A stretch of 64,000 bases of DNA, taken from sequence record SRR2962707_3387; one strand, given 5' to 3'. The notes below the pieces were generated by a model. It was not told the origin of the DNA and ran no database searches. It worked only from the letters and a program-made list of their open reading frames with translations. Every line of letters starts with the position of its first letter. Positions within the stretch are counted from its first letter, which is position 1. The position numbers were made by a program, and so were the translations under genes. Of the stretch, positions 2,545-43,106 are shown in pieces.

Positions 2545-2585
2545 AACCATGCCTCCTCAAGGGGGCGCTTCGCTTACTTAGTCCT

Positions 2586-3266: not shown

Positions 3267-4754
3267 TTACTGCAGCAGAGACAGAACCTGCTGAGGACGG
3301 GCGTTCGCCTGAGCCAGGACGGAGATACCGGCCTGCTGCAGCACCTGGGCCTTGGACAGCTTGGCTGTCTCAGCCGCGAAGTCCGCGTCCAGAATCCGGC
3401 TCTGAGCGGCGCTCAGGTTGGTGCTGGTGGACTCCAGGTTGGAGATGGTGCTTTCGAAGCGGCTCTGGATCGCACCAAACTTCGCACGCTGGGAGTTGAT
3501 GGTGTTCAGTGCCGCGTCTACGGTCTTCAGGGCCTGGGTCGCACTCTCGAAAGAGGAGATGTCCAGATCAGACACCTTGCGCAACTCAGAACCAGTATCC
3601 GCGAAGGCATTAGAGCTTGTGACATCGACCGCGAAGGAGCGATCAGAATCCAGCTGCAGATAGCCACTGGTTGCCACATCTTCAGCGGTGGTGTCCGCAG
3701 TCAGGGTTGCCGCAGCACCGGCATCCTGGAGCGCACCCTCGTCATCGCGGTACTGCTTGGTAATAGTCACGTTACCGGCGTTCTGCACCCCAGTATCGCC
3801 AACCACGATATCCGCACCCGTTTCGTTGGTCAGGACGATGGAAGCACCATCCTCGGCAACTTCTGCGGTGATACCGGTCTTGGAAGACTGGTCATTGATC
3901 GCCGCTACCGCAGCAGACAGAGAATCCTGGCCGCTGGTTGCGTCAATGGTGAAGGACACAGACTGAGCTTCGCTGTTGTCCGCAGTCAGATTCAGGGTAT
4001 AGCTACCAGAAGCTGCAAAGGCCAGATCCACTTCGGTACGGGCCGTGGCGGTTACGCCAGTGTCTGCAGTCTTGGAGTTGATATCAGCAGCGATATCCTT
4101 GGATGTCGCGTTGGCCGCAACGCTGATGGTTTCTGAACCCAGGTAGCCGTTGATGGCCACAGAACCGGAAGACACACCATTCACCGCGCCACCACCAGAA
4201 GCGGCTGTGCCAGCTGCTGCACCGCTCGCGATCACCTGGTTGTTACCGTACTTGTCGGTACGCAGGTTGGAGGTAGAGGCAGAAATAGTTTCGTTGGCGT
4301 TGGCACCAACCTGGAACTGGGCGGAGCCGAAAGTACCGTCGAAGAGCTTCTGGCCGTTGAAGTTGGTAGTTGTTGCAATACGATCCAACTCAGAAACCAA
4401 CTGGTTTACTTCGTCCTGCAGAGCCTGACGATCAGAGGAAGAGTTGGAAGCGTTAGCAGACTGAACCGCCAGCTCACGAACACGCTGCAGGATGTTACCT
4501 GCCTCGCCCAAGGCACCTTCTGCGGTCTGCGCCAGAGAGATACCGTCGTTGGCGTTACGGGTTGCCTGGTTCAGACCACGGATCTGAGCTTCGAAGCGGT
4601 TGGAAATCGCCAGACCGGCCGCGTCGTCTTTGGCAGAGTTAATGCGCAGACCTGAGGACAAACGCTCCAGAGCCTGATTGGACTGGTTCTGGGATTTGTT
4701 CAGCTGGTTCTGAGCGGACAATGAAGCAACGTTAGTGTTAATACCGAGAGCCAT
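3267..4754 (-). CDS. fliC: Flagellin 1 (probably major flagellin)
   Basis: 495 aa; [33 protein letters not shown]-terminal [25 protein letters not shown]. Confidence 0.98.
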
Positions 4755-4904: not shown

Positions 4905-7900
4905 TCAGAATTTAGTCCAGGCATTCAGCCAGAGCGTCAGATTGTCGCCTGACAGCATCCACTTTTCACGCACACTCTGCTTGAGCTTGTCACCCGCCCG
5001 GGCGGTCGCTTTCATATCCGAAAGATGCATTCGAATAGCATCGACCCAATCCTTGAAGCGGTTCTTTACGAGCGTGACCGGCAATCCGTGTGCCCGATAC
5101 GGTTCGACATCGCTGCACACCACAGGATAACCACAGGCACCGTACTCCAGCAGTCTCAGGTTACTCTTGCAACGATTGAACAGGTTGTCTTCCAGTGGCG
5201 CTATAGCCAGATCCAGATTCAAACTGGCCAGCTTTTGCGGATACCGCGAAATCTCGATCCCCTCATGAACCTCTGCGACAAATGGACGAAGCTTGTCCGG
5301 GCACATGCCAAAAAACACCCACTCGACCTCATCAGCCAGTTCCTGCACAACCGCTTCAACCAGTTCGAGGTCACCGGTATGCCCCATACCACCGGCCCAG
5401 CCCACCCTGGGCTTTTCGGACTGGCGCCTCAGGCTTTCCAGATCTCCCCACCACGCCACCGGCAAACAGTTTTCAACCACCTGGATATCCGGGTGCAATC
5501 CGGAAAATGCCTCTGCCAGCGGGTAAGTTGAAACAACAAACCGATCCACATACTTCAAGGAACGACGCAAGGACTTCAATATATCCTTTGGCATGTTTTC
5601 CCGGTACGCACTTTTGATCGGCAAATTCGGTAAATAGTCGTCGAGCTCGAAGACTGTCGGCTTCTTCAGTATCCGACGGGCTGATTGCATGTGCTCCACA
5701 GCCTGATCGGTGATCTGTCGCTGATACACCAGGACATCGGGATCCAACCGGGCCATTTCAGCAATGCTAAGCCAGTCAAAATCCGCCATGCCGCCTGCTA
5801 CGGCTTCTTCTTTCATGGCCAGTAACGGCTGCATGATCCGGTAGTGACCACAGCCCCAGGGATCCGCAGGGTGAGCAAGAATGGTGGAGAGTCCCAGGGC
5901 CTTCTGGGGCTGCCAGTTCAGCTCCACACGATGATCCACCTCAAATCCATTCGCTCTCAACGACAGGTTTCTGTTGAAAGCGGGGTCGTTGCCCATGTAG
6001 GGCAACCAGCGTTGAAACATCGCTTCCTGCTCTTTCTGAAAGCGACGAACCTTGTGCTCGTCGGCTGTTTTATCGACCGAGGTCTGACTGGCATTGGCAA
6101 CATGCATCACCAGCGCATGGGGGGTCCAAACGCTCAGATAACCGGCCTGAGCCACTTTCAGACAGAAATCGATATCGTTGTAGGAGACGGCAAAGGCCTC
6201 CTCGTCCAATCCACCGACCTGCTCGTAAACTGATTTTCTGACCAGCATGCAGGCGCCAGTCACAGCCGAGTAATTCTGGTCGACCATGAGTCGGTTCATA
6301 TAACCGGGGTCATTGGCCTCTGCATCAATACAAATGTGCTCAGCCGGCCCCCGCATGCCCACGACAACGCCAGCGTGTTGAACCTTGCCGTTGGGGAACA
6401 ACAACTTGGCGCCAACAATGCCCACTTCCGGTCTTTGAGCATGGTTCATCAAGGCGTCGAGCCAGTCCTCCTTTATGATTCCTGTGTCGTTATTGAGCAG
6501 CAGAACGTAGTCTCCCCGGCTTTGCGTTACCGCAAAATTGTTGATTGCCGAGAAATTAAAGGGCTTCGGGTAACGAAGCACGCGAAGGTTGGGCAGGCCC
6601 ATACTGTTGAGGCCATCAAGCCACGCGCGCGCTTCAGGCGTTTCGCTGTTGTTGTCCACCACCAGAATTTCGTAATTCGGGTAGGCGGTCTTTTCGAGAA
6701 TAGATTCCACACAGGTTTGCAGCAGATGTAGCTGGTCCTTGGTAGGAATAATGATCGACACAAGGGGCGCGCCGGCATGGGGGTAGCGAACCCGCAGACT
6801 GCTTGAGGTCAAGCCCGGCTCAATTCCGGCACCAGCATACCCTCGGCGTTCCAGATGACTTCGGATCACTGGTACGTATGCGGCCAGGTCGAACGTCTGC
6901 GTACCCGCGTGCAGCAGAAACAGGGGCTCGTCGGTACGGCCGATACAACCGAAACCCCGCTCTTCTATAAGGCGCAGGATGTAACCCAGCTCAAAAGCAC
7001 TGTCATCATTCTTGCTGAACCCTCCAAGCTCGACCAGCGGTGCCCGGCGAAACAGCCAATGCCTGGACATATCGGCCGGCGAACTGAGCAACATATCGAG
7101 GTTCAGGCCTGGTCGGAAATAGCCGCTTTCGGTCTTGCCATTGTGTTCGACCAGCTCATCACCATAGGCGGCATCCAGCGCTGCACCAGAAGACTCAAGC
7201 TCAGCCAACAACAGTACCAGGCCCGCCGGGGTCAACTCGGAAGGCGTTCTGGCCACCACCAACCAGTCACTCTTGAGATCAGAGGCAGCCGCTTCGTTAA
7301 GCACCGAGATCAGGTCTGAACGATCGTATTCGGCAAAGGAAACGTCCTGAAAAAGCTCCTTCCGGTAGAACGACTCATCCGGGGTGAGCACCAGACAAGA
7401 CAGTGAGGGGCAGTAGTAGCGAGCGATCCTGAATGCCAGTACAGAAATATTGAGGTTGTAATCCTCCGGCTTTTCATCGATCAGAACCAGGCACAGGGAT
7501 TGTCGTGCCGCGGTTGTCTCCAGACGTTTGGCCAGAGGAATGGACAACTCACGCTGCCCGTACCAGTTATCGAGACTTATCACGCCGCCTGGGCGACCAC
7601 ACTCTTCGGTACGTCGCTCAAGGTCGGAAAAGGACATCAAACCAGCGTCATCAATACCTCCGGCTTTTTGGTAAAAGCCCTTGAAATCGACTTTCTGGAA
7701 GTTGCTGCTTTGATCCCAAAGAGGTTTGGCCTGAACTTGCCCTTCCGGCTTTATCTCCCCGCCCAGCATTGCGTCCAACTGGGCCAGGAAGGCTTTGCGG
7801 CCATTTTCACCGAGTGTCTGAGCGCTTGCGTGGCGTTGATTCTGACCAGCGTGAATGCGGAAACAGGATAAATGCTCCTGCACGTACCCAAGATCACCCA

Positions 7901-8528
7901 CCATCAATAACCGGGCATAAACAGCCAGGTCGTTGACCGATGTGATCAGGCGATTGTTCAGGGCGCTCAAATGGGGATACGCGCCCAGCAGGTCTCTTCG
8001 GCGAACCATGATAGTACTGGGCTCACCAATGAAATTGATTGGAAACACCCGGAAAAACTCGAGCACGTCTTTTCCAAGTAACCGCGCGTCTTCGCGGACC
8101 GGCATAAGGTTAAAGAGCCGATCCTGAAGCGCATTGCCGGAGTCATCAATCAGCTTCCGCCGGGAGGTAGCCAGAATAACGCCCGGCTGCTCCAGCGCCG
8201 ACCTGAGTCTGACCACGCAGTTTTCCGCCAGCACGTCATCGTCATTGAGGAACTTGATGTAACGCCCACGGCTGAGACGAACGCCGTAATCCATTCCGAC
8301 AAGGCCACCCAATTGTGTTGCGGACTTGATGTAGCGGATGCGAGCGTCATCATAACCAGCGACGACATCAGCCACCGAGTTATCGGCACAGTCATCCATC
8401 ACCAGGATTTCGAAGCCCTCAACGTCTTTCTGAGCGTAGATGGAATCAATGGCCTCTCGCAGAAACCTGGCCTTGAAAGCCGTGATGATAAAACTTACGG
8501 CCAGGGTTTCGTTTTGCTGATCTGTCAT
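4905..8528 (-). CDS. Multi-domain flagellin glycosyltransferase (FgtA/Fgt1-like; GT2 domains plus C-terminal GT-B domain)
   Basis: 1207 aa; N-terminal GT2 (MDDC, FLNDDD), central GT2 (VSIIIPTKD, VVDNNS, LLNNDT, AVTGAC, YNDIDFC), C-terminal KSNLRLLEYGACG; directly upstream of fliC as in Pseudomonas glycosylation islands. Confidence 0.88.
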   Translation of the reverse strand: MTDQQNETLAVSFIITAFKARFLREAIDSIYAQKDVEGFEILVMDDCADNSVADVVAGYDDARIRYIKSATQLGGLVGMDYGVRLSRGRYIKFLNDDDVLAENCVVRLRSALEQPGVILATSRRKLIDDSGNALQDRLFNLMPVREDARLLGKDVLEFFRVFPINFIGEPSTIMVRRRDLLGAYPHLSALNNRLITSVNDLAVYARLLMVGDLGYVQEHLSCFRIHAGQNQRHASAQTLGENGRKAFLAQLDAMLGGEIKPEGQVQAKPLWDQSSNFQKVDFKGFYQKAGGIDDAGLMSFSDLERRTEECGRPGGVISLDNWYGQRELSIPLAKRLETTAARQSLCLVLIDEKPEDYNLNISVLAFRIARYYCPSLSCLVLTPDESFYRKELFQDVSFAEYDRSDLISVLNEAAASDLKSDWLVVARTPSELTPAGLVLLLAELESSGAALDAAYGDELVEHNGKTESGYFRPGLNLDMLLSSPADMSRHWLFRRAPLVELGGFSKNDDSAFELGYILRLIEERGFGCIGRTDEPLFLLHAGTQTFDLAAYVPVIRSHLERRGYAGAGIEPGLTSSSLRVRYPHAGAPLVSIIIPTKDQLHLLQTCVESILEKTAYPNYEILVVDNNSETPEARAWLDGLNSMGLPNLRVLRYPKPFNFSAINNFAVTQSRGDYVLLLNNDTGIIKEDWLDALMNHAQRPEVGIVGAKLLFPNGKVQHAGVVVGMRGPAEHICIDAEANDPGYMNRLMVDQNYSAVTGACMLVRKSVYEQVGGLDEEAFAVSYNDIDFCLKVAQAGYLSVWTPHALVMHVANASQTSVDKTADEHKVRRFQKEQEAMFQRWLPYMGNDPAFNRNLSLRANGFEVDHRVELNWQPQKALGLSTILAHPADPWGCGHYRIMQPLLAMKEEAVAGGMADFDWLSIAEMARLDPDVLVYQRQITDQAVEHMQSARRILKKPTVFELDDYLPNLPIKSAYRENMPKDILKSLRRSLKYVDRFVVSTYPLAEAFSGLHPDIQVVENCLPVAWWGDLESLRRQSEKPRVGWAGGMGHTGDLELVEAVVQELADEVEWVFFGMCPDKLRPFVAEVHEGIEISRYPQKLASLNLDLAIAPLEDNLFNRCKSNLRLLEYGACGYPVVCSDVEPYRAHGLPVTLVKNRFKDWVDAIRMHLSDMKATARAGDKLKQSVREKWMLSGDNLTLWLNAWTKF

Positions 8529-9580
8529 TGGTCACTCTTTTCGGGTTTGGTTACAACGTAAAGAACGCTTTCTTTCTTCAGGCCAAGCGACTGGTAAACG
8601 GCAGCACCAAAATACCCGACATCCAGCAGTTGCAACCTGAACCCCGCGTTCTGTACCCGGGAGACATAGCCCGCCCGGTTATACAGACGAACATGATCGC
8701 CCTGACCAAAGCGCCGCCACCTCTCGGCTTCCCGCTCCTCACCCGGGTCCTCATCAATCTCGTCAAGGTCACAGATAATCGGCACCATCAACAGCGCACT
8801 GCAACCCGGCCTCAGAACGCGAAACAACTCTGACAATGCTTTGGCATCGTCCTGAACGTGCTCCAGAACATGACTGCACACGAAAAAGTCCAGGCTGTTC
8901 GCATCAAAAGGCAGGTCCATCAGATCGACCCTGTGATCCACTCCCTGCATGGCGAAATCCGCCGTCTGGTAATCGGCGAAGCCAATCTGTTTTAACCAGC
9001 GAGAGAAACCCGGTTCCGGCGCGAAATGCATGACGCTGGCATCACGGGACAATTCACCTCGACATAAAAGGGCAGACAGCCAGTACGCATAAAGACGCTC
9101 CCGGTCCGACGCACCGCAAGACGCACAGGTATAGGAATCGTGGGCTGTCATTTCACCCTGGCCAAAATATTTGAAGCCATTGTCCTCGGCATGCTTCCGG
9201 TAGAACTCCGGAAGCGCGTGGAACCCCTGGTTAACGGCATTACACAGGGGGCAATAGCTTTTAGAAAGGTGACGCGCGATCACCTGCTCCGGCGGAATCA
9301 CCGGTGCTTTAGCCGCGCCACGCTCCTTCATGACTTCAACCAGGTTGTCGAGGATCAGGCGAGACGTGTTTGCCTGCAACTCTGACGCTTCTCGGAACTT
9401 ATTGATGGCTGATTCGAAGTCACCATGTTTGAACTGCGCCACCGCGATGTCATTTGACAACGCATCGTAGCTTCCGATGACCGACTCAACCTGCAAAAGA
9501 AGTTCTGCAGCGCGCTTATAGTTGCCAGCTCCGAACTCGCTGTAGGCGCTGGCCTTCAATTGTTCTATTTCAGCGCTCAT
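8525..9580 (-). CDS. TPR-containing class I SAM-dependent methyltransferase
   Basis: N-terminal TPR-like helices, CPLC...CASC, HFAPE, CSHVLEHV.DD..AL.EL.RVLRPG. Confidence 0.8.
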   Translation of the reverse strand: MSAEIEQLKASAYSEFGAGNYKRAAELLLQVESVIGSYDALSNDIAVAQFKHGDFESAINKFREASELQANTSRLILDNLVEVMKERGAAKAPVIPPEQVIARHLSKSYCPLCNAVNQGFHALPEFYRKHAEDNGFKYFGQGEMTAHDSYTCASCGASDRERLYAYWLSALLCRGELSRDASVMHFAPEPGFSRWLKQIGFADYQTADFAMQGVDHRVDLMDLPFDANSLDFFVCSHVLEHVQDDAKALSELFRVLRPGCSALLMVPIICDLDEIDEDPGEEREAERWRRFGQGDHVRLYNRAGYVSRVQNAGFRLQLLDVGYFGAAVYQSLGLKKESVLYVVTKPEKSDQ

Positions 9581-9608
9581 GTCTTACCTCTAGTAATCTT
9601 TGTGGCGG

Positions 9609-10280
9609 CTATGACCAGCCAAGGGAATTTGCCAGATAATCCAGAACCGTTCCGGCCTGTGCTTCCGAATATCGACCGTTGCAAGTGACAAACACCGGTA
9701 CCTGTTTGCGAACACCGTAACTGCTACGAACGTTGCGGGCTCTCTCCGCGAGCTCGTCAGAGTTAAACAGTAATACCGCGCCACCGTGCCTTGTTGGTAA
9801 CTCCAGCAGGACTGGCTCAGGAAAGCCATCGGAAATCCCCTGCTCCGGGCGGTCGCTTGACCAGTCCGGATAATGGACGACAAGCTGCTGCTGGCCCTGA
9901 CCAACCGCTGCACAGTTCAAGTCGCGTTCCTCCCTGAGCGTCCGAAACAGGACATCGGTGCCCTGAACAACACTGTCGGGGTTATCCAGAGCATGAACTG
10001 AAAGACCACTGAACGCCCCTACGTGTACCAGGCACGGATCTTCATCCCCGGGGTAATAGACCAGGCGTGAATGCTGCCTTGTTCGCAACGCAATCAGGGC
10101 CACCAGAAGTCCCAGCTCCAGGCTTCCGACCAACACCGCGTGTCGGGCTCCCATGTGTTCTTCCAGTGTCTGCTCCAGTGCACGGGCAAGAGGCCCATGG
10201 TTCGTAAAATAGCGGTTGGCCAGAATATCGGAAACCACTTTACGGGCATTGTATTCAGCCATCACAACTCCCGGGGACAT
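9609..10280 (-). CDS. Truncated DegT-family aminotransferase-like protein lacking the catalytic Lys
   Basis: 223 aa; YFTNHGPLARALE and NGRYSEAQAG align to the DegT family, but the SFHxxK motif and C-terminal domain are absent. Confidence 0.65.
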   Translation of the reverse strand: MSPGVVMAEYNARKVVSDILANRYFTNHGPLARALEQTLEEHMGARHAVLVGSLELGLLVALIALRTRQHSRLVYYPGDEDPCLVHVGAFSGLSVHALDNPDSVVQGTDVLFRTLREERDLNCAAVGQGQQQLVVHYPDWSSDRPEQGISDGFPEPVLLELPTRHGGAVLLFNSDELAERARNVRSSYGVRKQVPVFVTCNGRYSEAQAGTVLDYLANSLGWS

Positions 10281-11397
10281 CCGATAGTAGAGACTTGATC
10301 ATGGCGACGACATGCGTCACATCCGCTTCAGAGACTCTGAAGCCACAGGGTAGATTGAGCAATGCCCGGGCAGCATGTTCGGTTACGGGAAGAGGCTCCG
10401 GGCACAAAACCGGGTACTCATAGCTTTTGCTATGAAGCGGCGGTGAATAGTGGGCCCGGGCCAGAACGCCAGCCTGATTCAGATTCCGCACAATGCGGTC
10501 TCTCACCTCCCCGCTCACGCCTGGAACCTCAACAACAATATTTTTGAATGACGTTTGCTGAGCCTCATCAAACGCGAGAAGCCGGATACCGGCAACCCCT
10601 TTGAGCTCTCTTTGATACGCCCGGTAAATCCTGCGGTTGTGGCGGACGTTTTCTTCTATTTCGTCCAGTCCGGCAAGGGCAAAAGCAGCATGGATATCGG
10701 GCATGTCCGAAGCGAGCCAGTGCCCGGGTTTCAGACGTCGGGCGTTACTTTTGTCGCGGGATCTGAAATCACGAAGCCTGCCTGCGTAGGCACTGTCGTT
10801 CACACACACGTAGCCGCCCTCCAATCCATTGATCAGCTTGCTCGCGTGCAACGAGAACACCTCGGGCACATCAAAAGACCCTACGCGTTTTCCCTGCCAG
10901 GTTTCGTGAACGGACTCCACGGCATCGATGACCATTGGCACGGCATATTTCGCTGCAATCTCTGTCAGTCGCGAAACATCGCAACAATTCACGATAGGAT
11001 GAACCGCAAGGATGGCTGCGGTGTTTGATCCAATAGCCCGCTCAACTGACTCGGGAGAGATTGCCAGCGTGGACTCATCAATGTCCACGAAACGGGGAAC
11101 CTTACCGGCCCAGAACACAACATCGGCCAGCCGGCGGTAGGTAAACGACGGGATAATAACCTCTGGAGCATCAAGGGCACTTAACCGCAAGCTCGCCACC
11201 AATGACCAGAAACCCGTGGACATGGCCACGCAGTGTTCAGCCTGATGGTACTCACAGAGACGTTTCTCAAGTAACGACACCAGCCAACCCGGACGACTCT
11301 CCCCCCCGTTTTCGAGCCACTGATCTACATACCCCAGAATGCGCTCTTTCTCAGGCTCGTAAAGGTTGGATGTTGAGAGAAAGCCTGTCGAAGACAT
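10255..11397 (-). CDS. DegT/DnrJ/EryC1/StrS-family PLP-dependent aminotransferase (divergent)
   Basis: IIPSFTY, PRFVDID, IDAVES, FSLHASKLINGLEGG (PLP Lys), C-terminal LNLP. Confidence 0.82.
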   Translation of the reverse strand: MSSTGFLSTSNLYEPEKERILGYVDQWLENGGESRPGWLVSLLEKRLCEYHQAEHCVAMSTGFWSLVASLRLSALDAPEVIIPSFTYRRLADVVFWAGKVPRFVDIDESTLAISPESVERAIGSNTAAILAVHPIVNCCDVSRLTEIAAKYAVPMVIDAVESVHETWQGKRVGSFDVPEVFSLHASKLINGLEGGYVCVNDSAYAGRLRDFRSRDKSNARRLKPGHWLASDMPDIHAAFALAGLDEIEENVRHNRRIYRAYQRELKGVAGIRLLAFDEAQQTSFKNIVVEVPGVSGEVRDRIVRNLNQAGVLARAHYSPPLHSKSYEYPVLCPEPLPVTEHAARALLNLPCGFRVSEADVTHVVAMIKSLLSDVPGSCDG

Positions 11398-12089
11398 CAG
11401 ACTCGCCTCGTCATAAGCACATCGAATCGGTAGCCGGCGCCGTAGAAATCATTCGGCATCGTCATGATGTCCACGTTAAAACCGCATGCTTCGCCCAGGG
11501 CAACGAACTCGTCCGCGCTCCACCAGACCCCAATCGGCGACTTCGGGTCGTCCAACCGGTAATCCACGACATTGCGCCGCTGGAAGAAATCGGCCGCCTT
11601 CGTTTTATCCGGTACATTGCCGATAAAGATTCGCTCACAGGCGCTGTACTGACTCCAGATGGTCTTCAACAGCGTGCTCACTGAGTCAGCGGAAAGATAA
11701 GAGATCACGCCGTAGACGAGCACCCGCGTAATTCGGGAAGCCTCAGGAAACTCAAGGGTCGCCTCTACCGCATCCCCACAATAGAAATGCGTTTTGCCCG
11801 GTATCGAAAAGAACTCCCGGGCCACACCAACCAGGTACTCCGAAAAATCTACGCCATGATATTCTGATATCGAATCAAACAGGTAGCTGGCCAGTGCAGC
11901 GTTTCCACATCCCAGGTCGAGGAGAACGTCGCCAGGCCGAAACCGCAGCGCCCCCGATATCTGATCCACGATCATCCGAATATCCTGCTCACTGACAGGC
12001 TTGCCATTCACCGTCCGCTTGATCTGTTGCCAGAACGCGTCGCGATCAAACTGTTTCGGGTATTCCTTGTGCAGATAATCGTCACTCAT
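11397..12089 (-). CDS. Class I SAM-dependent methyltransferase
   Basis: LLDLGCGN motif I, GVDFS; start could alternatively be GTG 12098. Confidence 0.85.
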   Translation of the reverse strand: MSDDYLHKEYPKQFDRDAFWQQIKRTVNGKPVSEQDIRMIVDQISGALRFRPGDVLLDLGCGNAALASYLFDSISEYHGVDFSEYLVGVAREFFSIPGKTHFYCGDAVEATLEFPEASRITRVLVYGVISYLSADSVSTLLKTIWSQYSACERIFIGNVPDKTKAADFFQRRNVVDYRLDDPKSPIGVWWSADEFVALGEACGFNVDIMTMPNDFYGAGYRFDVLMTRRV

Positions 12090-12098
12090 CACTGACAC

Positions 12099-12818
12099 TT
12101 AGGCTGGGTGGAGGGTGAAGTCGTTCAGCAATATGTCTTGCAGCGTCCCCTCATCACACCACATCAAGGCGTCGAGGATGGACAGGTTCGGAACGTAATC
12201 GTAGCCATTCTGAACATACGGGCGAATAGTCGATTCCATAAAGGAGAGACCAATGCCCGCCTCACGGAACTGTGCAGGATCAAACAGAGCCTGCCCCCCC
12301 ATAGGGTTAATGTAGTGCTCCGCCCCCATGGCCCTGGCGATCTTGAGCGCCCACTCCCCGGAATGGGCGACCTGATCGATCCCCAGGTCCAGCTCAGAAT
12401 ACACCAGGATCTTTGTATTGATGCCAAGATGATCAGCCAGTACCTGGAGACTGTGGGTCAGAAATCTGGACAGGACAGCGTTGGGCGTCCCGATGGCTGA
12501 TTCAAAAACCGACATGGTTTTCCGATAGTTCGGCGCACGACGATAATGAACCAGCTTACCTGTGAGGCTTTTACGCCAGTCACTGCTGTCGTCAATCTCA
12601 ATGTCATCAATGAAATCGAAACGCCCCCTTTTGCTCAGGGGTACGGTGATGTACTGCCACCCTTTCTCCGGATTGGGGTGCAAAACACGATTGCGATTGA
12701 CCCACCCCTTGTTCACAAACTGGCAATGATCAAACACAACCCAGGTGTCCGCGTGCGCCATCAGCTGAAAATAGCCCGGATACGGAAAGAAATAGGGTTG
12801 CATAACCGCCAGTTTCAT
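12099..12818 (-). CDS. WbqC-family protein (putative glycyltransferase)
   Basis: MQPYFFPY.GYFQL, GWVNRNR, YINP.GG, LSILD.LM signature. Confidence 0.9.
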   Translation of the reverse strand: MKLAVMQPYFFPYPGYFQLMAHADTWVVFDHCQFVNKGWVNRNRVLHPNPEKGWQYITVPLSKRGRFDFIDDIEIDDSSDWRKSLTGKLVHYRRAPNYRKTMSVFESAIGTPNAVLSRFLTHSLQVLADHLGINTKILVYSELDLGIDQVAHSGEWALKIARAMGAEHYINPMGGQALFDPAQFREAGIGLSFMESTIRPYVQNGYDYVPNLSILDALMWCDEGTLQDILLNDFTLHPA

Positions 12819-13948
12819 TGCCCGCTTCCCGAAGGCCCATGATTGGCATTGGCGGCTTCACGGAGACAGCTTATTATTCGGCCAAAATCCTCATCATTGA
12901 GGTCGCTATAGATTGGCAGACAAAGAATTCGCTGGGCGGTATCTGCGGCATTTTCGAACACCGCCGAAGGGTCAAAGTACATTGGAAAATCGGAGACCAG
13001 CGGATAGAAATAGCGGCGTACCAGAATCCCCTGCTTTCGGAATTCAGAATAAAGGTCATCCCTGGACAGTGGGAAGCTCTCATTTACCAGAACCGGACAG
13101 TAGGAGTAATTCCACTCCGTGTCGACCGGCTCTTCCATCAGTTGCAGGCCTTCAATACCTATGAGTTCCTCACGATATTTCCGGTACACACTCTGCCGGG
13201 CCCGAATGTCGGAATCAATTTTCTCAAGCTGTAACAAGCCCAACGCTGCCTGGAACTCGTTCATCTTGCCGTTGATACCCGGGGCGACCACCGTGGTCTC
13301 GTTGGCAAACCCAAAGTTCTTCAGGTAATCGACCCGCTGCTTCGTTTTCTTGTCCTTGAGTATCAGCGCCCCACCCTCGAAGGTATTGAACACCTTGGTG
13401 GCGTGAAAGCTGAGCACGGAAATATCACCAGCCTCCAGGAGGCTCCGGCCCCTGTATCTGACTGCAAACGCATGGGCCGCATCATATATAACGTGCAACC
13501 CGTAAAGATCGGCGATTCGCTGGATTTCATCAATATTTGCAGGAGTCCCATAGCAGTGTACGGGGAGTATGGCTGTGGTCTCCGGGGTTATCGCGGCTTC
13601 AATTTTTGAGGCGTCGAGGTTAAAGCTATCCGGCTCGATATCCACGAAAACAGGCTTGAGCTTGTTCCATAACAAAGCATGGGGCGTCGCCGCGAAGGTA
13701 TAGGGCGTGGTAATCACCTCCCCGGTAACGCGCATCGCCTGCAAAGCAGTAACCAGAGCAATCGTGCCGTTAGTGAACAGGGACAGATGTTCGACCCCCA
13801 GATACTCGCAAAGGCGGGCTTCCAGTTCCTCATGAAAGCGCCCACCGTTAGTTAACCGCCCGCTTTTCCAGATTTCCTCCAAAAGAGGCTGCAGCTTTTC
13901 AAGATCAGGAAGGCTGGGCCGGGTAACGGTAATCAGGTCATCAGCCAC
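12815..13948 (-). CDS. vioA: dTDP-4-amino-4,6-dideoxy-D-glucose (viosamine) transaminase, VioA-like
   Basis: VTRPSLP, LTNGG, NGTIAL, YDAAHAF, SFHATKVFNTFEGG, GINGKMNEFQAA, RRYFYPL; GTG start with GAGG RBS. Confidence 0.85.
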   Translation of the reverse strand: MADDLITVTRPSLPDLEKLQPLLEEIWKSGRLTNGGRFHEELEARLCEYLGVEHLSLFTNGTIALVTALQAMRVTGEVITTPYTFAATPHALLWNKLKPVFVDIEPDSFNLDASKIEAAITPETTAILPVHCYGTPANIDEIQRIADLYGLHVIYDAAHAFAVRYRGRSLLEAGDISVLSFHATKVFNTFEGGALILKDKKTKQRVDYLKNFGFANETTVVAPGINGKMNEFQAALGLLQLEKIDSDIRARQSVYRKYREELIGIEGLQLMEEPVDTEWNYSYCPVLVNESFPLSRDDLYSEFRKQGILVRRYFYPLVSDFPMYFDPSAVFENAADTAQRILCLPIYSDLNDEDFGRIISCLREAANANHGPSGSGQ

Positions 13949-14275: not shown

Positions 14276-15769
14276 ATGCCTCAGATCATCAACACCAACA
14301 TCGCGTCGCTGAACGCTCAACGCAACCTGAACGCCTCTCAGCAGGACGCAAACACAACACTTCAGCGCTTGTCCTCAGGTTTGCGAATTAATTCAGCAAA
14401 AGACGATGCGGCCGGGCTGGCAATTGCGGAACGCTTTACCTCGCAAGTAAAGGGCCTGAACCAGGCTGTACGAAACTCCAATGACGGTGTCTCGCTCGCT
14501 CAAGTAGCTGAGGGCGCGCTGGGGGAATCTGGCAACATCCTTCAACGGATGAGAGAACTGGCCGTGCAGGCTGCGAACGCCACCAACTCTGCTTCAGACA
14601 GGAAAGCCCTGCAGGCCGAGGTGAATCAGCTCAAACAGGAGCTCGAGCGGATCGCAACCACCACAGAATTCAACGGCCTTAAACTTCTCGACGGAACGTT
14701 CCAGGCTCAGAAATTCCAGGCCGGTGCCAACGAAAACCAGACCATTTCTGTGTCGATCACCGGTACCAGAATTGACACTTTGGCAAACAACACGGTCGAG
14801 ACCATCGCCAGCGGTAGCTCCACAGGCTCTATCACCGTAGCCTCAGGTGGTACGGCACCCGCACTGAATGCGATACAGCCTCAGGATATTACGATTTCCA
14901 GTTCGCTTGATGAGCAGACGGTTAACATCACAGCCTCTGGTGCCACAGCAGAATCGATTGCCGCCGAAATCAACAAAGCCGCCGAAACAACCGGTGTCTC
15001 CGCGAGTGCCCGCACCAGCGTTGAGCTGTCCAACCTGAGCGCAAGCGGCACCGTGACAATGAGCCTGTCGACCGGCGATGGCAACAATGCAACTATCTCC
15101 GCCCAGATATCCGACGTTAACGACCTTGAGCCATTAGCCCGCGAGATCAACGCCAGCAGTGGCAAAACCGGCATTACGGCCGAAGTGGATGGCGGAACCA
15201 TCAAGCTCATCCAGGAAAGCGGTAAAGACGTTGTCATTGAAGGCTTTACCAGCAATGGAGCTGGCTCGCCGACGATGGATCTGACCGGCTCCTCCCAGGC
15301 GACAGCCCAGTTGGCCACAGGCGGTAACGACAGCGCCCGGATAGCTGGTGAGATAAACTTTGACTCCGCTTCCAGCTTTGCCGTTTCCTCTACGGTGGCC
15401 GGTGGTGCAGGCGGCATTTTCGCAACCACAGACACCTTTGGCTCCGACCCGGAAAAAGTAGCCGACATCGACATCAGTACTTTCGAGGGCGCCAGCAGTG
15501 CGATGAGAGTGCTCGACTCTGCACTGGAAACCATTAACGGAATCCGCGCAGACCTGGGTGCGGTGCAGAACCGGCTGGAATCTACCATCGCCAACCTGAG
15601 CACCACGTCAGAGAATCTCTCTGCAGCTCGTTCCCGGATCCAGGATGCCGACTTCGCGGCGGAGTCTGCGAACCTTGCCAGAACCCAGGTTCTCCAGCAG
15701 GCCGGCCTCTCAGTTCTGGCTCAGGCCAACGCCCGCCCCCAGCAGGTACTTCAGCTGCTGCAGGGCTAA
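14276..15769 (+). CDS. fliC: Flagellin 2
   Basis: 497 aa; [50 protein letters not shown]. Confidence 0.98.
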   Translation: MPQIINTNIASLNAQRNLNASQQDANTTLQRLSSGLRINSAKDDAAGLAIAERFTSQVKGLNQAVRNSNDGVSLAQVAEGALGESGNILQRMRELAVQAANATNSASDRKALQAEVNQLKQELERIATTTEFNGLKLLDGTFQAQKFQAGANENQTISVSITGTRIDTLANNTVETIASGSSTGSITVASGGTAPALNAIQPQDITISSSLDEQTVNITASGATAESIAAEINKAAETTGVSASARTSVELSNLSASGTVTMSLSTGDGNNATISAQISDVNDLEPLAREINASSGKTGITAEVDGGTIKLIQESGKDVVIEGFTSNGAGSPTMDLTGSSQATAQLATGGNDSARIAGEINFDSASSFAVSSTVAGGAGGIFATTDTFGSDPEKVADIDISTFEGASSAMRVLDSALETINGIRADLGAVQNRLESTIANLSTTSENLSAARSRIQDADFAAESANLARTQVLQQAGLSVLAQANARPQQVLQLLQG

Positions 15770-15835: not shown

Positions 15836-16378
15836 CTAGGGAAATAATTCCCGGAAAGGCCGGCCCGCAGCGTCTTTCTCAGAAATGATCAACCGACTGG
15901 TTTCGACACACCCCCAGTCGATACCCAGGTTTTCATCATCCCACCGAATACAGCGCTCAAACTCCGGAGCGTAGAAGTCCGTGCACTTGTACTGGAAGTC
16001 CGCCTGCTCGCTCCTGACCAGAAAACCATGCGCAAACCCAGGAGGGATCCACATCATCCGGTGATTGGTATCGGACAGCACTTCGGACACCCATTGCCCG
16101 AACGTCGTGGAATCCGGACGAATATCCACGGCCACATCCAGCACCTCTCCCTGGCTCACCCAGACAAGCTTGCCTTGTGGTCGTTCGCATTGATAGTGCA
16201 GGCCCCGCAACGTGTTCCGGCAGGAGCGGCTGAAATTGTCCTGTACGAAGGAAAGGTTCAGTCCCAGCTTTTCCAGCTGTCGCTGATTCCAGGTTTCCTT
16301 GAAGAACCCCCGGCTGTCCCCGAACACCCGGGGTACCAGCACTTTTACATCGGGTATCTTGGTTTCAATGATATCCAT
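15836..16378 (-). CDS. rmlC: dTDP-4-dehydrorhamnose 3,5-epimerase
   Basis: FGDSRGFFKE, QDNFSRS, LRGLHYQ, QGKLV, PGFAHGF. Confidence 0.96.
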   Translation of the reverse strand: MDIIETKIPDVKVLVPRVFGDSRGFFKETWNQRQLEKLGLNLSFVQDNFSRSCRNTLRGLHYQCERPQGKLVWVSQGEVLDVAVDIRPDSTTFGQWVSEVLSDTNHRMMWIPPGFAHGFLVRSEQADFQYKCTDFYAPEFERCIRWDDENLGIDWGCVETSRLIISEKDAAGRPFRELFP

Positions 16379-16395
16379 GGTCGCCTTGTTGTCTT

Positions 16396-17259
16396 CTATT
16401 GCGCGAGTCGTCTGAGGTAGTGGCCATAACTGTTTTTATCAAGCTTATCCGCCTGAGCCAGCAACTGATCACGGTCTATGTAACCCATTCGAAAAGCAAC
16501 CTCCTCAAGACAGGCAATCTTCAGTCCCTGCCGCTTCTCAAGCGTTTCAATAAAACCGGACGCTTCATAAAGAGAGTCAAACGTTCCCGTATCTAACCAG
16601 GCAAAACCACGACCAAGGAGCTCCACGTTCAATTTCCCGGAGGCCAGATACGCCTGGTTTACCGCAGTGATCTCAAGCTCTCCACGCGCCGAAGGCGAAA
16701 TGCTCCTGGCAATCGAAACCACATCGTTATCGTAAAAATACAGACCCGTGACCGCATAGTCGGACTTTGGCACCGCGGGCTTTTCCTCAATGGAAACCGC
16801 TCGCCCCTCCTCGTCGAATTCAACAACGCCAAACCGCTCGGGATCTTTCACCTGATAGCCGAAAATCGTAGCACCGGAGTCAAGCGAGGCCGCCCGCTGA
16901 AGTTTCTGGCTCAAGCCCTGGCCGTAATAGATGTTGTCCCCTAACACCAGGCACACGCTCTCTGCACCAATAAACGACGCACCAATAAGAAATGCCTGGG
17001 CGATACCCTCTGGCCTGGGTTGAACCGCGTACTCGATCTCGATGCCAAAGTGGCTGCCATCGCCCAGCAGCCTTCGGAATGTGGAACTATCCTCAGGTGT
17101 GGTGATAATCAGGATTTCCCGAATACCCGCCAGCATCAGTATCGACAGCGGGTAATAGATCATGGGTTTGTCGTAAACCGGCAACAGTTGTTTAGACACG
17201 CCCTGAGTAATGGGGTACAGCCGGGTTCCGGATCCACCAGCCAACACGATACCTTTCAC
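16396..17259 (-). CDS. rmlA: Glucose-1-phosphate thymidylyltransferase
   Basis: [38 protein letters not shown] start at 17259 with GGAGG RBS. Confidence 0.97.
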
Positions 17260-18167
17260 AGCTGCCTCCGTTTCTCGAAATAAAGCCCTTCGTCGACAAC
17301 CCGAATCACGCCCGTGGTCCAATCCGGAAGCTCCAGATCAAAAGCCTTTTCAAGCCGGGACGTATTCAGGCAGGAATTCTTCGGTCGCAAAACCTCGGAG
17401 CCATAAACCGCAGCCGTTACCGGGACAATGGCCGCATCGTCAATCACCTGCCCGGCCGATCGCTCCCTTAACAGGTCTGCAATCAGACAGCTATAGCCGT
17501 ACCAAGACGTTGCCCCACTCGCAGTCAAGTGATAAAGCCCGCCTAACGCACGATCTGGGTAGGTGCGGGCAACAGCATGAGCAGTCACGTCCGCCAGCAG
17601 CTCTGCCGAGGTCGGCGCACCCCGCTGATCATCAACCACCGTTAGCCGGTCTCTCTCACGCAAGAGCTTCAGCATCGTTGTCAGGAAATTCTTGCCACGG
17701 ACGGAGTAGACCCAACTGGTCCGGAAAATAAGGTAGTCGCAACCTGACGCCATAACTCGACGGTCACCGTCGAACTTGCTCTCACCATAGACATTCAAGG
17801 GCTGTGCAACGTCCGTCTCGGAATAGGCGTCATCAGACTGGCCGTCGTATACGTAATCGGTTGAATAGTGAACCATCAAGGCACCACAGCGCGCCGCCTC
17901 CTGCGCCATGGCTTCAGGCGCCAGAGCATTGATGGCAAAAGCCCGCGCCCGTTCGTGCTCCGCTGCCGGCACATCGGTGTAGGCGGCGGCATTCACCACC
18001 ACATCCGGACAATGGCGCCGAATGGTTTGCCTCAGGCCCTCCAGGTCACCTAAATCACCACCCGCTCCCGGCTTTCTGGCAGGTACCACCAGCTGCCCGA
18101 GAACCGACAACGCACGCCTCAACTCCCAGCCAACCTGGCCCTCACCACCAAACAGAAGAATGCGCAT
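17256..18167 (-). CDS. rmlD: dTDP-4-dehydrorhamnose reductase
   Basis: [35 protein letters not shown]. Confidence 0.95.
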
Positions 18168-19252
18168 CAAACGCTCCCCGACCGATAACTGCCGTCCGCA
18201 ATTCGCTCGCACCAGTTCTGGTTATCCAGATACCAATACACTGTTTTCCGAAGCCCGGAGGTGAGGGTTTCTTTTGGTTCCCACGCCAGATCACGGCGGA
18301 TCTTGGAAGCATCGATAGCATAGTGCAAGTCGTGCCCGGGCCTGTCCTCAACGAAGGTGATCAGGTCTTCAAAACGCCGAACTCCTTGCGGTTTCTCGGG
18401 AACAACATCCTCCAGTACATCACACAAAGCACGAACCAGATCGATATTCCTCATCTCGGCATTACCGCCAATGTTGTAGGCCTCGTTCGCACTGGCTTTC
18501 GTGAGCACTCGATAGAGAGCTTCAGCATGATCCTCAACGTAGAGCCAGTCCCGGATCTGACGCCCGTCACCGTATACCGGCAAAGGTTTACCTGCCAGCG
18601 CGTTGGTAATCATCAGCGGTATGATTTTTTCTGGAAACTGAAACGGCCCATAATTGTTGGAGCAATTGGTAATAAGAATCGGCAGGCCATAGGTTCGGCT
18701 CCAGGCCCGAACCAGGTGATCCGAGCTGGCTTTGCTTGCACTGTAGGGGCTACTCGGGGAGTAAGGCGTTTGCTCGGTGAAGGCGGTTTCTCCTGTCCGT
18801 GAATCCGCCAGATCACCAAACACCTCATCGGTGCTGACATGGTGGAACCGAAACATCTGGCGCTCACCTTCCTCAAGCCGGCCCCAGTATGCGCGGGCAG
18901 CCTCGAGCAGGGTATAGGTTCCAATGATGTTGGTCTCAATGAAAACTGCAGGCCCCTCAATAGACCTGTCTACATGGCTCTCGGCAGCCAGGTGCAGCAC
19001 AGCAGAAGGCCGGTACCGTTCCAACAGACGATCCACCAGCTCACGGTCACAGATATCGCCCTTTTCAAACACAAAACGAGGATGGCCCTGGAGCCCGGCC
19101 AGATTGTCCAGATTGCCGCAATAGGTGAGCTTGTCCAGCACCACAACGCTATCGTCAGTACGCTCAATAATGAACCGTGCAACGGCTGAGCCAATAAACC
19201 CTGCCCCACCTGTTACGAGAATTGTTCTCGTCATGCTATTGCTTCCCGTCAT
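18167..19252 (-). CDS. rmlB: dTDP-glucose 4,6-dehydratase
   Basis: [46 protein letters not shown]; start 19252 or 19234. Confidence 0.97.
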
Positions 19253-19351
19253 AAGTTCCCGGCGTCTCTTTTCCTGGCATAGAGGCCCGAGTATAACCAA
19301 AACCTTCAACTCGTCGCTGTAAACAGAGACGACTATGGACAAAACTGAAAC

Positions 19352-19367
19352 TGGCACACCTTTCGCA
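19352..19367 (+). promoter_or_regulatory. sigma54 promoter upstream of the TPR gene
   Basis: TGGCACACCTTTCGCA with correctly spaced GG(-24)/GC(-12), about 80 nt upstream of ATG 19450. Confidence 0.7.
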
Positions 19368-19449
19368 ACTCCTCCCTCAAACCCCGGCAAACCGTCAAAA
19401 AACTGCAGACCTTTGCCGCATCGGATAATGGCTGGTAACGAGGTGTTCC

Positions 19450-21453
19450 ATGCAAGTACAACATCATAACGCGCATCTTTCCCGCTCCGTTCAGGCTCAG
19501 GTCGCGCGCCTGGTGCTCCAGGCAAACCTGGCGTATGGCGAGTCCAACAGCAACGGGCTCTCCTACATTCAGCGGCTGAAAGCGCGCAATGAATGCCGGG
19601 AATACCTGAATCAGGCGTTGGCGCTGGAGGCCGATCACGCAGCGGCCCTTGGCCTGCTCGGCCGAGTGGAGATGGACGACGGCCAGCTTGAAAAGGCCCA
19701 CGCCCTGTTCAATGCCAGTCTCAATCGGCAACCGGCGCAGGCCCAGCAATACTGCAACCTGGGCTATTGGGCACTGAAGAGCGAGCGCCCCGCCCTGGCG
19801 GAGGAGTATTTCCTGCAGGCACTGGAATGCGACCGGCAATCTGCCGCCGCTTTCTGCGGCGTTGCTCATGCCAAACAGCTGCAAGGCCAGTTTGATGTTG
19901 CCTACCTGCACTACCGCAAGTTACTCCAAAGCGGATCGGAATGGGACTCTGTCTATTCCGGCATGCTCTCGTGTGCGCAGCACCTTCAGGTTCACAAAGC
20001 CGACAGCGATCTGGCGCTGGACGCCATTGCCCTGCTTCGGCAGGAAGGTCTGCCACACCAGGAAATCGGCCACTTTGTCGGCGCAATCATCCAGCAACAA
20101 TACGACCTGGATAACCCCAACGCCGAAATCTTCCTGGATGCCGCGGCAGAAGATGAATTGCTGATCCTGGCGCTCCAGAAAACTCTGATGCCCAATGCCG
20201 CTGTGGAAGAACTGGTGGTGCTACTGCGCCGCGCCATTATGGCGGAGGTCGCTCAAACGGCCAGCCTGAGGGACGAACTGCAGCCCCTCTGCCTGGCCAT
20301 CGCGGAATACGCCGACCGCACCGGCTTCGCGCTGGCCGCAGAAGACGATGAGGAACGCCTGGCGGCCACCATCAATGAAAGCATCATGGCGCAATTTGCC
20401 GTGGGCGAACCTCAAGAGGCCCTGATTGGCTCGCTGATGATCAGCGCCATGTATGGTGCGCTTTTCCACCAGAACTTTGCAGTTCAACTCGGCCAATGGA
20501 ACCTGGTGGACTGGCCACTGGCCATGCAACCCATTATGGCAGCCAGCTACTACAACCGGGCAGAAGAAGAGGCCATCAAGCAGAATTTTGACGAAAAAGC
20601 CGAGGAACTCTGCCTGGAGAAAACCGATGTGCCCCAGGCATGGCCGGCCTGGAGCCAGCTGGCCTATCGGACGGAGACCAGCCTGAAAGCCGTGATGGCG
20701 CAGGAACTTGGCCTGAACACCGACAACCTCCCCGCCACGTTTCGGATTTTGGTGTGCGGCGCTCAGTCTGGCCAGCGAGCCATGGAGCTGGCGCAATACC
20801 TGAACGATGTGGAAGTGATTGCAGTTGATGAATCCCTGGCCAATATCGCTAAAGGCACCCGTATGGCCCAGAGCCTGAACATGGACAACATCGTGTTCTG
20901 GCCCTGGTCCATCGCACAGCGTTTTGTGGCCGATGGTCACAAGGTCCATTGGGTGGAAGTGGGCCGTGTGCCCTCACCGGCCATGACCGAGCTTTCTCTG
21001 GCCGCACTCATCAATAGTGCCTCGAACACCGGTGCCATTGTGCACATGCATACGGCGCTGGCCGAGCAAACCCAGGGCGACAAACAGATTCGCCGCCTGG
21101 TCGCGGAGCACAATCTGCAGCCCACTCGTACCGCCCTGCGTCAACTTCGCAGGATGGTATTGGCCAACCGGCAAGATACCCTCTGGACAGAGCTGCTGAA
21201 GGACGAGGACTTCTACAGCCTGGGCGGCTGCCGCGATCGATGGTTCCGGCCGCAAGACGCCAACCAGCTCAAAGAGCTGCTGGCCCTGGTGAGCAATGAA
21301 GTAGAGTGGAAGCTGATTAAAGCCCGGGATGAAGATGGCCACAGCCTGGCCACCGGCCCGGTACAGCGCCAGATCCAGGCGGAAGCCCTGGGTAGTGAAG
21401 TTCAAAGCCTGATGGGGCAGAACCTGAGCGTGTATTTCCAGCGCCGACGCTAA
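19450..21453 (+). CDS. TPR-repeat protein with degenerate C-terminal methyltransferase-like domain
   Basis: 667 aa; about four TPRs ([29 protein letters not shown]); C-terminal [13 protein letters not shown]...VIAVDES resembles a SAM-binding fold. Confidence 0.75.
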
Positions 21454-39613: not shown

Positions 39614-39624
39614 CTTTGAATTCC

Positions 39625-41938: not shown

Positions 41939-41940
41939 GA

Positions 41941-43104: not shown

Positions 43105-43106
43105 GA

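Follow-up and report, generated by a model that had tools for sequence, protein, structure and literature searches.

A window of 64,000 nt from record SRR2962707_3387, which is the whole stretch of DNA analyzed here, carries at positions 9609–11397 of the minus strand two adjacent genes for DegT-like proteins, a family of aminotransferases dependent on pyridoxal phosphate (PLP). The pair lies inside a flagellin glycosylation island, beside rmlABCD (Table 1). We designate as LONG the open reading frame (ORF) of 380 aa and as SHORT the ORF of 217–223 aa that follows it, and we use partner for the SHORT-family homologs found beside LONG elsewhere. The loci nearest to the window are those of Marinobacter nauticus DSM 50418 and M. 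fuscus, with an identity of 97% for LONG. An initial annotation had noted that the two proteins show complementary losses of DegT motifs and proposed that they assemble a single composite active site, as a subfunctionalized pair rather than a gene plus a pseudogene.

The annotated ORFs of LONG and SHORT overlap by 26 nt. There is, however, a second in-frame ATG in SHORT at 10262, preceded by GGGAG with a 5-nt spacer, that yields a product of 217 aa, the same length as that of the nearest database cluster (P0001). Because of both features, ATG 10262 is probably the true start of SHORT, leaving an overlap of 8 nt with the stop codon of LONG; likewise, the location of GGGAG near the overlap suggests that translation of both genes may be coupled. 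In the related loci, the LONG and partner genes abut or share a few bases.

LONG matches Pfam family PF01041 (DegT) along profile positions 4–359 of 360 (2.9e-69, 234.4 bits) and keeps in a single chain the PLP lysine and aspartate (Lys187 in SLHASK and Asp158 in IDAVES), as well as Glu193 and the S60-T61-G62 phosphate loop. Missing from LONG are the N-terminal TNxG, with ENGGESRPG in its place, and the loop N-x-K/R, where the sequence reads WLASDMPDIH. Conversely, the match of SHORT to PF01041 comprises residues 13–69 only (profile 8–63, 1.3e-6, 28.4 bits vs. a cut-off of 19.8), and there is neither a Schiff-base lysine nor a PLP aspartate at the aligned positions in a three-way alignment, in the family alignment or in an AlphaFold2 model. 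SHORT retains YFTNHGP (FTNHGP being residues 25–30) and SSYG...CNGRYSEAQAG, the latter within the C-terminal motif RNVRSSYG...TCNGRYSEAQAG (residues 182–210), and ends after the helix following NGR, with the C-terminal small domain missing and parts of the central domain gone. The VioA-like protein encoded two genes upstream of LONG displays the whole set (LTNGG, DAAHA, SFHATK, and NFG...GINGKMNEFQAA). Every motif quoted in the initial annotation for these three proteins is present in their translations, and the complementary loss it described holds: LONG has the Lys and Asp without TNxG and N-x-K/R, and SHORT keeps only these two elements. Neither the Marinobacter LONG sequence nor SHORT, on its own, contains the elements of a symmetric homodimer, in which each chain donates a loop Asn-x-Arg/Lys. 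None of the NCBIfam equivalog cut-offs was reached by LONG or SHORT (217.4 bits for LONG against TIGR04427, DesI, with a cut-off of 650), and the VioA-like protein, with 292 bits, was likewise under its equivalog cut-off.

The AlphaFold2 model of SHORT, built with a 40-sequence alignment, corresponds to a cut-down DegT large domain, with a mean predicted local distance difference test (pLDDT) of 86.4 and a predicted template modeling score (pTM) of 0.86. Foldseek matched this model to the large domains of KabA, NtdA, perosamine synthase, ArnB, WbpE, DesI and PseC, with template modeling scores of ~0.7 (query-normalized). As judged from its sequence and predicted fold, SHORT is a member of the DegT family by descent but not a competent enzyme.

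A word-indexed search with SHORT retrieved Marinobacter relatives of 212–221 aa and 49–50% identity, and an exhaustive HMMER search among 1.84 billion representatives retrieved at least 217 SHORT-family proteins at E ≤ 0.001 (94 at E ≤ 1e-10), whose lengths fall into three groups of ~190–245 aa, ~340–410 aa, and 528–902 aa. The motif pattern of SHORT is far beyond chance, as it characterizes a whole family with no fewer than 217 representative proteins. We aligned 41 sequences of 185–250 aa, 37 of which are 50%-identity representatives and four are nearer relatives; all of them end at one point shortly past the NGR helix, and the lysine motif is found in none. In a 40-row alignment, the invariant columns were G29, R182, R185, S186, S187, G189, V196, N201, R203, and Q208, and those conserved in at least 90% of the rows were T26, N27, H28, P30, N183, Y188, T199, G202, S205, E206, and A209. 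The strongest constraint in the short family is therefore on the DegT trans-active-site elements (TNHGP and NGR), rather than on a new surface. The short gene is under purifying selection, with ratios of nonsynonymous to synonymous substitution (dN/dS) of 0.12–0.32 among the window and five Marinobacter loci; values for LONG were 0.17–0.31 in pairs with unsaturated dS. SHORT evolves faster, with 48% protein identity between Marinobacter species groups vs. 65–69% for LONG, and its ORF is intact in the window and in all five Marinobacter loci despite a protein divergence of 52%.

A search with LONG produced 699 matches at E ≤ 1e-30 among 8000 candidates scored. An alignment of 91 rows showed invariant positions at H51, P83, T86, Y87, R88, R89, D158, V160, E161, S162, and K187, as well as N190, G191, E193, G194, G195, and Y196, and the family can be recognized by the signature DAVES.HET ... 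S(L/F/M)HASKL.NG.EGGY. The closest solved relative of LONG is DesI (2po3), matched at 5e-40 by the LONG sequence alone and at 9.4e-57 by the LONG profile. Residues 86–89 of LONG are the family-invariant T-Y-R-R, where the VioA-like protein has T-F-A-A, following the PLP-stacking aromatic residue; both arginines fall in the predicted interface with SHORT described below. In the model, these two fixed arginines would lie at the mouth of the LONG site, which hints at an acidic (carboxylate or phosphate) group in the substrate.

Scanning one genome per GTDB species with a LONG profile identified 80 loci (designated with L-numbers), which together with the window make up 81 rows. They span Pseudomonadota, Planctomycetota, Actinomycetota, Verrucomicrobiota, Bacteroidota, and one Halobacteria bin. 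The Lys and Asp of LONG are kept in 81/81 rows. A scan with hidden Markov models (HMMs) of both families found partner-homologous sequence directly downstream of LONG in 78 of the 80 loci; in the remaining two (L038 and L076) LONG is at a contig end, so that both genes co-occur in all 78 assessable loci. The partner is intact in 74 of them: in 41 it is full-length with the lysine (including L007 and L067), in 25 full-length without the lysine, and in eight short (212–231 aa; L001–L005 from Marinobacter, L010 and L011 from Opitutus, and L036). It is cut by the contig end in L055 and split into pieces in three loci (L047, L052, and L079), all of them metagenome bins.

In several cases the two genes are fused. 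Loci L007 and L067 contain single LONG-partner proteins of 768 aa, and all ten proteins of at least 528 aa among 150 listed SHORT relatives consist of a LONG-like domain (34–56% identity) followed by a partner-like domain, for a total of 12 natural fusions, some of which have a short-type second domain. In P0156 and P0161 there is additionally a domain in front with 47–48% identity to MT1, the methyltransferase encoded directly upstream of LONG, reproducing the gene order of the window in one polypeptide. An AlphaFold2 model of fusion P0131 (10-row alignment) had a pTM of 0.82, which fits a defined packing of the LONG and partner halves. Residues 224–273 of P0131 are a 50-residue insertion at the lost trans loop of its LONG domain, predicted to be disordered (pLDDT 25–44).

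Modeling of the LONG + SHORT complex, the heterodimer prediction called for by the initial proposal, gave a score of 0.92 (0.92, 0.92, and 0.93 in individual runs), vs. 0.00 for the best of three controls; in the calibration of this score, 51 of 78 solved complexes pass the threshold vs. 2 of 108 mismatched pairs. The runs shared at least 91% of contacts, with a pLDDT of at least 79 for the partner. The interface comprised residues 12–27 (including F25-T26-N27), 52–56, 82–92, 163–165, 187, 197–203 (V-T-C-N-G-R), and 205–208 of SHORT, and residues 10–36, 60–64 (the S-T-G phosphate loop), 88–96, 184–186 (beside K187), 190–193 (including E193), and 216–239 of LONG; as predicted, it is the canonical DegT dimer interface. 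SHORT 197–203 share this interface with LONG 60–64 and 184–186, in a model that contains no PLP and with no explicit contact between them among the residue pairs listed.

From these results, we consider it highly probable that LONG and SHORT constitute a DegT aminotransferase that is obligately heteromeric, with SHORT as a pseudoenzyme subunit and one composite site per heterodimer. The computational results are gene linkage, natural fusions, conserved motifs, purifying selection, and a modeled complex that passed its controls; from them we infer physical binding, the trans role of Asn201 and Arg203, catalysis at a single site, and the connection with the VioA-like enzyme. LONG would be the catalytic subunit, in which Lys187, Asp158, and the STG phosphate loop hold PLP, and would contribute the C-terminal small domain. 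SHORT would pack against LONG at the interface usual for DegT dimers and would provide in trans the loop Asn201-Gly-Arg203, toward the PLP phosphate, and the N-terminal turn Thr26-Asn27-His28, toward the substrate pocket. The composite site proposed in the initial annotation is thus favored by the linkage, selection, the 12 fusions, the predicted complex, and the parallel with a known enzyme that is presented next.

That enzyme is SerTA (Ser5/Ser4) from Serratia sp. ATCC 39006 (PDB 8Y96–8Y98; FEBS Lett 2024, PMC11726168), which its authors call the first heterooligomeric aminotransferase. According to that report, Ser5 is full-length, with Lys211 and Asp182, and Ser4 is short and lysine-less; they are insoluble alone and co-purify as a heterotetramer of two heterodimers, with one active site each. 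Ser4 contributes Asn189* and Arg191*, which bind to the PLP phosphate of Ser5 and are held by Ser5 Glu218; mutant R191*A is inactive and N189*A retains 60% of the activity (PMC11726168). SerTA is encoded in an amino-group-carrier-protein gene cluster and uses N2-acetyl-ornithine/lysine in vitro (PMC11726168). LONG/SHORT and SerTA have several features in common: the genes are in tandem and annotated as sugar (DegT-type) aminotransferases, a full-length chain with Lys and Asp accompanies a chain of ~210–220 aa without the lysine and the small domain, the short chain has the Asn-x-Arg, the inter-subunit loop of the long chain is itself shortened, and there is one active site per heterodimer, shown for SerTA and proposed for LONG/SHORT. 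By its position after the lysine, E193 of LONG is the counterpart of Ser5 Glu218.

There are also clear differences between both systems. Ser4 is devoid of the N-terminal region, whereas SHORT keeps an N-terminal arm with TNHGP; the LONG and SHORT genes lie in loci for dTDP-sugars and flagellin glycans, accompanied by genes for a methyltransferase and a WbqC-like protein, and their family also includes full-length lysine-bearing partners and natural fusions. The context of an amino-group-carrier-protein cluster was not found among the neighboring ORFs of at least 60 aa, which code for flagellins, Rml enzymes, glycosyltransferases, methyltransferases, and the WbqC-like protein. Orthology with SerTA was examined and rejected: Ser5 (8y96_A) ranked 54 of 58 among the PDB matches to the LONG profile (5e-17, vs. 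9.4e-57 for DesI), and Ser4 was matched neither by SHORT (E ≤ 10) nor by the short-family profile (E ≤ 0.01). This last profile retrieved 204 matches at E ≤ 1e-10 from a set of 5.8 billion proteins, few of them named and none of these from Serratia.

LONG has the fold and PLP residues of canonical DegT homodimers, such as DesI (2po3), GDP-perosamine synthase (3bn1 and 3dr7), ArnB, WbpE, and PseC. However, these are symmetric, with each chain giving the loop Asn/Arg, whereas in LONG/SHORT the roles would be divided over two genes with one site left. Comparable arrangements exist in other enzyme-pseudoenzyme paralogue pairs, such as the eukaryotic serine palmitoyltransferase LCB1/LCB2, where one lysine-less and one lysine-bearing paralogue of PLP fold type I form a single interface site; this enzyme belongs to another PLP family (the alpha-oxoamine synthases), is membrane-bound and is related to LONG/SHORT by fold type only. 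In a literature search on heteromeric DegT-type aminotransferases, SerTA was the one relevant precedent found. The heteromeric DegT principle is therefore already known since 2024, and the LONG/partner family is apparently undescribed and widespread.

If the pair of the window has one composite site, those loci with lysine-bearing partners could have two: site A, with the Lys/Asp of LONG and the TNHGP/NGR of the partner, would be universal, and site B, with the Lys/Asp of the partner and the TN/N-x-K of LONG, would be optional and lost as a unit across both genes. We scored three states in 76 rows, namely Lys plus Asp in the partner, N-x-K/R in the loop of LONG and T/S-N at its N-terminus; the two loci at a contig end (L038 and L076) and the three with a split partner (L047, L052, and L079) were left out. 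All three states were absent in 38 rows and present in 35, so that the state of the partner site tracks the trans motifs of LONG in 73 of 76 rows, as expected if the two chains build each other's sites. When the partner has Lys and Asp, LONG reads YTN.GP and G.NAKLNE; when the partner site is dead, it reads GGESRPG plus WLASDM (in Marinobacter) or YTDHG plus IDAKQNE, among others. Site B therefore seems to be preserved in roughly half of the related loci, and it is lost in Marinobacter. Conversely, the Asn and Arg of the partner NGR were kept in all 76 rows that cover it, and the partner's own lysine is dispensable. Using a LONG tree (quick search, LG+G4), we counted at least six changes in the lysine state of the partner, at least three of them forced by well-supported branches, and at least three changes to or from the short state, at least two of them forced.

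The loss of site B coincides with the presence of another aminotransferase. We counted as a third DegT any stand-alone DegT protein that reached 300 aa and scored 130 or more with the LONG HMM, a score that marks the DesI/VioA type. Of the 40 rows whose partner site is dead, 35 have such a protein, vs. 1 (L030) of the 36 in which this site is intact. A third DegT of a more distant kind is found in eight rows with an intact site, and six of these loci also have an FdtA-like gene. In a joint tree of 139 rows (quick search, LG+G4), the partners formed one clade with a support of 99. The possibility that the third, VioA-like DegT is a recent duplicate of the partner was ruled out with this tree: the third DegTs lie outside the partner clade, in separate clades, and for this reason they are recruits and not recent copies of the partner. 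The VioA-type 4-amination of dTDP-4-keto-6-deoxyglucose attributed to site B would now probably be done in the window by the stand-alone VioA-like enzyme, and the takeover of this job by a separate enzyme could have left the partner free to shrink to the needs of site A.

According to these phylogenies, LONG and the partner are two old and separate DegT clades that appear paired across several phyla, and the SHORT of Marinobacter would be the reduced end-state of a partner that is elsewhere full-length and often lysine-bearing. The idea of a subfunctionalized pair consequently stands in that SHORT is conserved and selected, but it should be modified in that the pair is not a Marinobacter-specific split of recent paralogues.

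Other explanations for the pair were weighed against an obligate heteromer. SHORT could be the decaying pseudogene of a once full-length paralogue, with LONG acting alone as a conventional homodimer; indeed, in SHORT neither the lysine nor the aspartate remains, the central domain is incomplete and the C-terminal domain is missing altogether, SHORT diverges faster than LONG across Marinobacter species, and the partner looks split in 3 of 78 loci. Decay would nevertheless leave neither a dN/dS as low as that of SHORT nor an ORF that stays intact through 52% divergence, and it does not account for a common end point and invariant motifs in 41 short forms, mostly 50%-identity representatives, for truncations that occurred at least two to three times and always kept the same two elements, or for fusions to LONG that include short-type second domains. 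Moreover, the Marinobacter LONG lacks the loop Asn and Arg/Lys, and the equivalent Arg is essential in SerTA (PMC11726168). On the basis of dN/dS, family size, and the common end point, we rejected this explanation, which we regard as extremely improbable. Scarcely more probable is that LONG and the partner are independent homodimeric enzymes for consecutive steps, adjacent only because of the operon and with motif differences that reflect their substrates. Neighboring steps of a pathway are often adjacent or fused, 41 of the 74 intact partners elsewhere are full-length with a lysine at the aligned position, and the 36 of 76 rows with Lys and Asp together could correspond to active enzymes. 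This is impossible for Marinobacter, whose SHORT has no lysine, aspartate or small domain; besides, TNHGP and NGR persist in 26 full-length partners that have lost the lysine, the trans motifs of LONG are gone when the lysine site of the partner is gone, and LONG never occurs without a partner in assessable loci.

An unlikely alternative, although more plausible than the previous two, is that SHORT is functional without being the trans half of an active site. It might act as a scaffold or adaptor, linking LONG with the methyltransferase, with the WbqC-like protein or with a carrier, it might have a regulatory or chaperone-like role, or it might pair with the VioA-like enzyme. The conserved gene module and the triple methyltransferase-LONG-partner fusions fit a multi-enzyme assembly, an additional docking role of the short chain is suggested for SerTA by its authors (PMC11726168), and the complex model cannot tell which family member binds. 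However, the residues under the highest constraint are DegT trans-active-site elements, located in the predicted interface by the phosphate loop of LONG and the flanks of Lys187, and the state of the partner site follows the trans motifs of LONG in all but three of the rows; as for a pairing with the VioA-like protein, this has all the elements of its own.

Several observations do weigh against an obligate heteromer and the loss of site B as a unit. Three rows are discordant: the LONG loop is present with neither a partner site nor the N-terminal motif in L019 and L071, and only the N-terminal motif is missing in L021. With the trait columns excluded from the tree, the co-degeneration is reduced to five changes in the state of the partner and three well-supported contrasts (five with all branches), all of them in the predicted direction but with p ~0.25 in a sign test; the contrasts for the third DegT are equally few (three supported, all as predicted, p ~0.25), and five dead-site rows, several of them with short flanks, have no third DegT (L012, L013, L048, L055, and L069). 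An Asn is still at the loop position in 52 of 81 LONG rows, and the loss of the loop is, from the alignment, complete only in some clades, Marinobacter included. The split partners of L047, L052, and L079 could be due to real decay or to assembly error. The complex model, which was made without the family alignments, may reflect memory of solved DegT homodimers and SerTA, and its pass speaks of likeness and not of binding by this particular copy. Binding, PLP content, and activity are predictions from sequence and models, and the assignment of a substrate is a guess.

The LONG and partner genes usually belong to a larger module, with MT1 in 63, the WbqC-like gene in 57 and the gene for a protein with tetratricopeptide repeats (TPR) and a methyltransferase domain in 31 of the 81 loci; other neighbors are TPR-GT41 glycosyltransferases, flagellin, FlhA, RmlA, RmlB, FdtA, a sulfotransferase, and GT2. 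The methyltransferase, LONG, the partner, and the WbqC-like protein make up the conserved module. The substrate of the LONG/SHORT enzyme might be, as a guess, a keto intermediate of the modified amino-6-deoxyhexose or of its N-acyl group, with the new amino group being methylated afterwards by the fused or adjacent methyltransferase. A 619-aa protein, P0042, also has fused methyltransferase and DegT domains, and the presence of methyltransferase-LONG fusions in three proteins (P0042, P0156, and P0161) supports consecutive amination and methylation.

As a tentative scenario, which could well prove wrong, we propose that the ancestor was a two-site heterodimer that carried out two aminations in one complex, within a methyltransferase/aminotransferase/WbqC-like assembly making an undescribed modified amino-6-deoxyhexose on flagellins and other surface glycans; site B would then have been lost on several independent occasions, each time from the two genes at once and in the company of a stand-alone VioA-like enzyme, and the origin of the system would be independent of that of SerTA. 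If so, these loci would offer a natural, replicated series for the birth of a pseudoenzyme subunit, and heteromeric DegT enzymes would have arisen repeatedly rather than as a single exception.

Both in annotation and in research, DegT sugar aminotransferases are treated as homodimers that need no other subunit. If LONG and its partner are an obligate heteromer, the LONG-family genes of at least 80 species would probably yield inactive or insoluble products when expressed alone, the short genes, often labeled as hypothetical or truncated aminotransferases, would not be junk, and the reconstructions of flagellin and O-antigen sugar pathways in these organisms would miss a step. The family would be an independent and much larger counterpart to SerTA, the single published heteromeric aminotransferase, and its members can be arranged in a graded series (two-site, one-site full-length, one-site truncated, and fused) that is usable for studying the evolution of pseudoenzyme subunits.

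Some related loci showed particular features. A sulfotransferase-family gene of ~277 aa lies between the methyltransferase and LONG in 12 of the 13 loci carrying one (L024, L030–L032, L034, L038, L039, L045, L053, L054, L060, and L073), which hints that the product may be sulfated in some lineages. The LONG and partner sequences of L054 (Polaribacter bin) and L060 (Francisellaceae bin), from different phyla, are near-identical, with end branches of 0.008 and 0 in the LONG tree; this indicates either a very recent transfer or the mis-binning of one contig population. The Halobacteria archaeon bin (L013) contains a LONG-partner pair at positions 8735–11256, with a full-length, lysine-less partner and with a methyltransferase and a sulfotransferase-like gene nearby.

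In the window, the island, whose contents include FliD, is bounded by two flagellin genes, with the rml genes, which would supply the precursor dTDP-4-keto-6-deoxyglucose, immediately beyond (Table 1). The 1207-aa protein is probably the flagellin glycosyltransferase. In a search of solved structures by sequence, the WbqC-like protein had no match and MT1 had one marginal match. Judging from titles and abstract openings, literature searches found no functional study of WbqC, nothing on the flagellin glycan of Marinobacter, and no paired DegT genes in work on flagellin glycosylation and viosamine.

Table 1. Location of the LONG/SHORT pair and other features in the 64,000-nt window.
Feature	Coordinates	Strand	Description
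FliD	571–2550		In the island
Flagellin	3267–4754	-	Bounds the island on one side
Multi-domain glycosyltransferase	4905–8528	-	1207 aa; two GT2 domains plus a GT1-type C-terminus
TPR + methyltransferase protein	8525–9580	-	351 aa; downstream of SHORT
SHORT	9609–10280	-	223-aa ORF; truncated, lysine-less, DegT-like; proposed non-catalytic subunit completing the LONG active site
LONG/SHORT overlap	10255–10262	-	LONG stop codon, 10257–10255; probable SHORT start ATG, 10262–10260
LONG	10255–11397	-	380 aa; full-length DegT-type; proposed catalytic subunit
MT1	11397–12098	-	233 aa; class I S-adenosylmethionine-dependent methyltransferase, directly upstream of LONG
WbqC-like protein	12099–12818	-	239 aa; PF08889, 2.3e-62
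VioA-like DegT aminotransferase	12815–13948	-	377 aa; stand-alone, all motifs intact; two genes upstream of LONG
Second flagellin	14276–15769	+	Bounds the island on the other side
RmlC, RmlA, RmlD, RmlB homologs	15836–19525	-	dTDP-6-deoxyhexose pathway
667-aa ORF	19450–21453	+	Between the rml genes and an exonuclease gene
Second surface-polysaccharide region	26790–59301	-	Includes the five features below
NeuB	38555–39667		Nonulosonic-acid gene
Cytidylyltransferase	41237–41944		Nonulosonic-acid gene
Fourth DegT	41941–43110		Within the nonulosonic-acid genes
PseB-like	43107–44105		Nonulosonic-acid gene
KpsC/KpsS-like Capsule_synth proteins	45390–53174		One of 1169 aa

The second surface-polysaccharide region of the window also codes for a UDP-glucose dehydrogenase, a PglF/CapD-like dehydratase, an ABC transporter, Poly_export, and Wzi, and has a GC content down to 0.39–0.43 at 47–51 kb, which suggests that this segment may have been gained horizontally. 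Finally, the 667-aa ORF has no Pfam match at E ≤ 1e-5 and overlaps minus-strand ORFs, and may not be a real gene.

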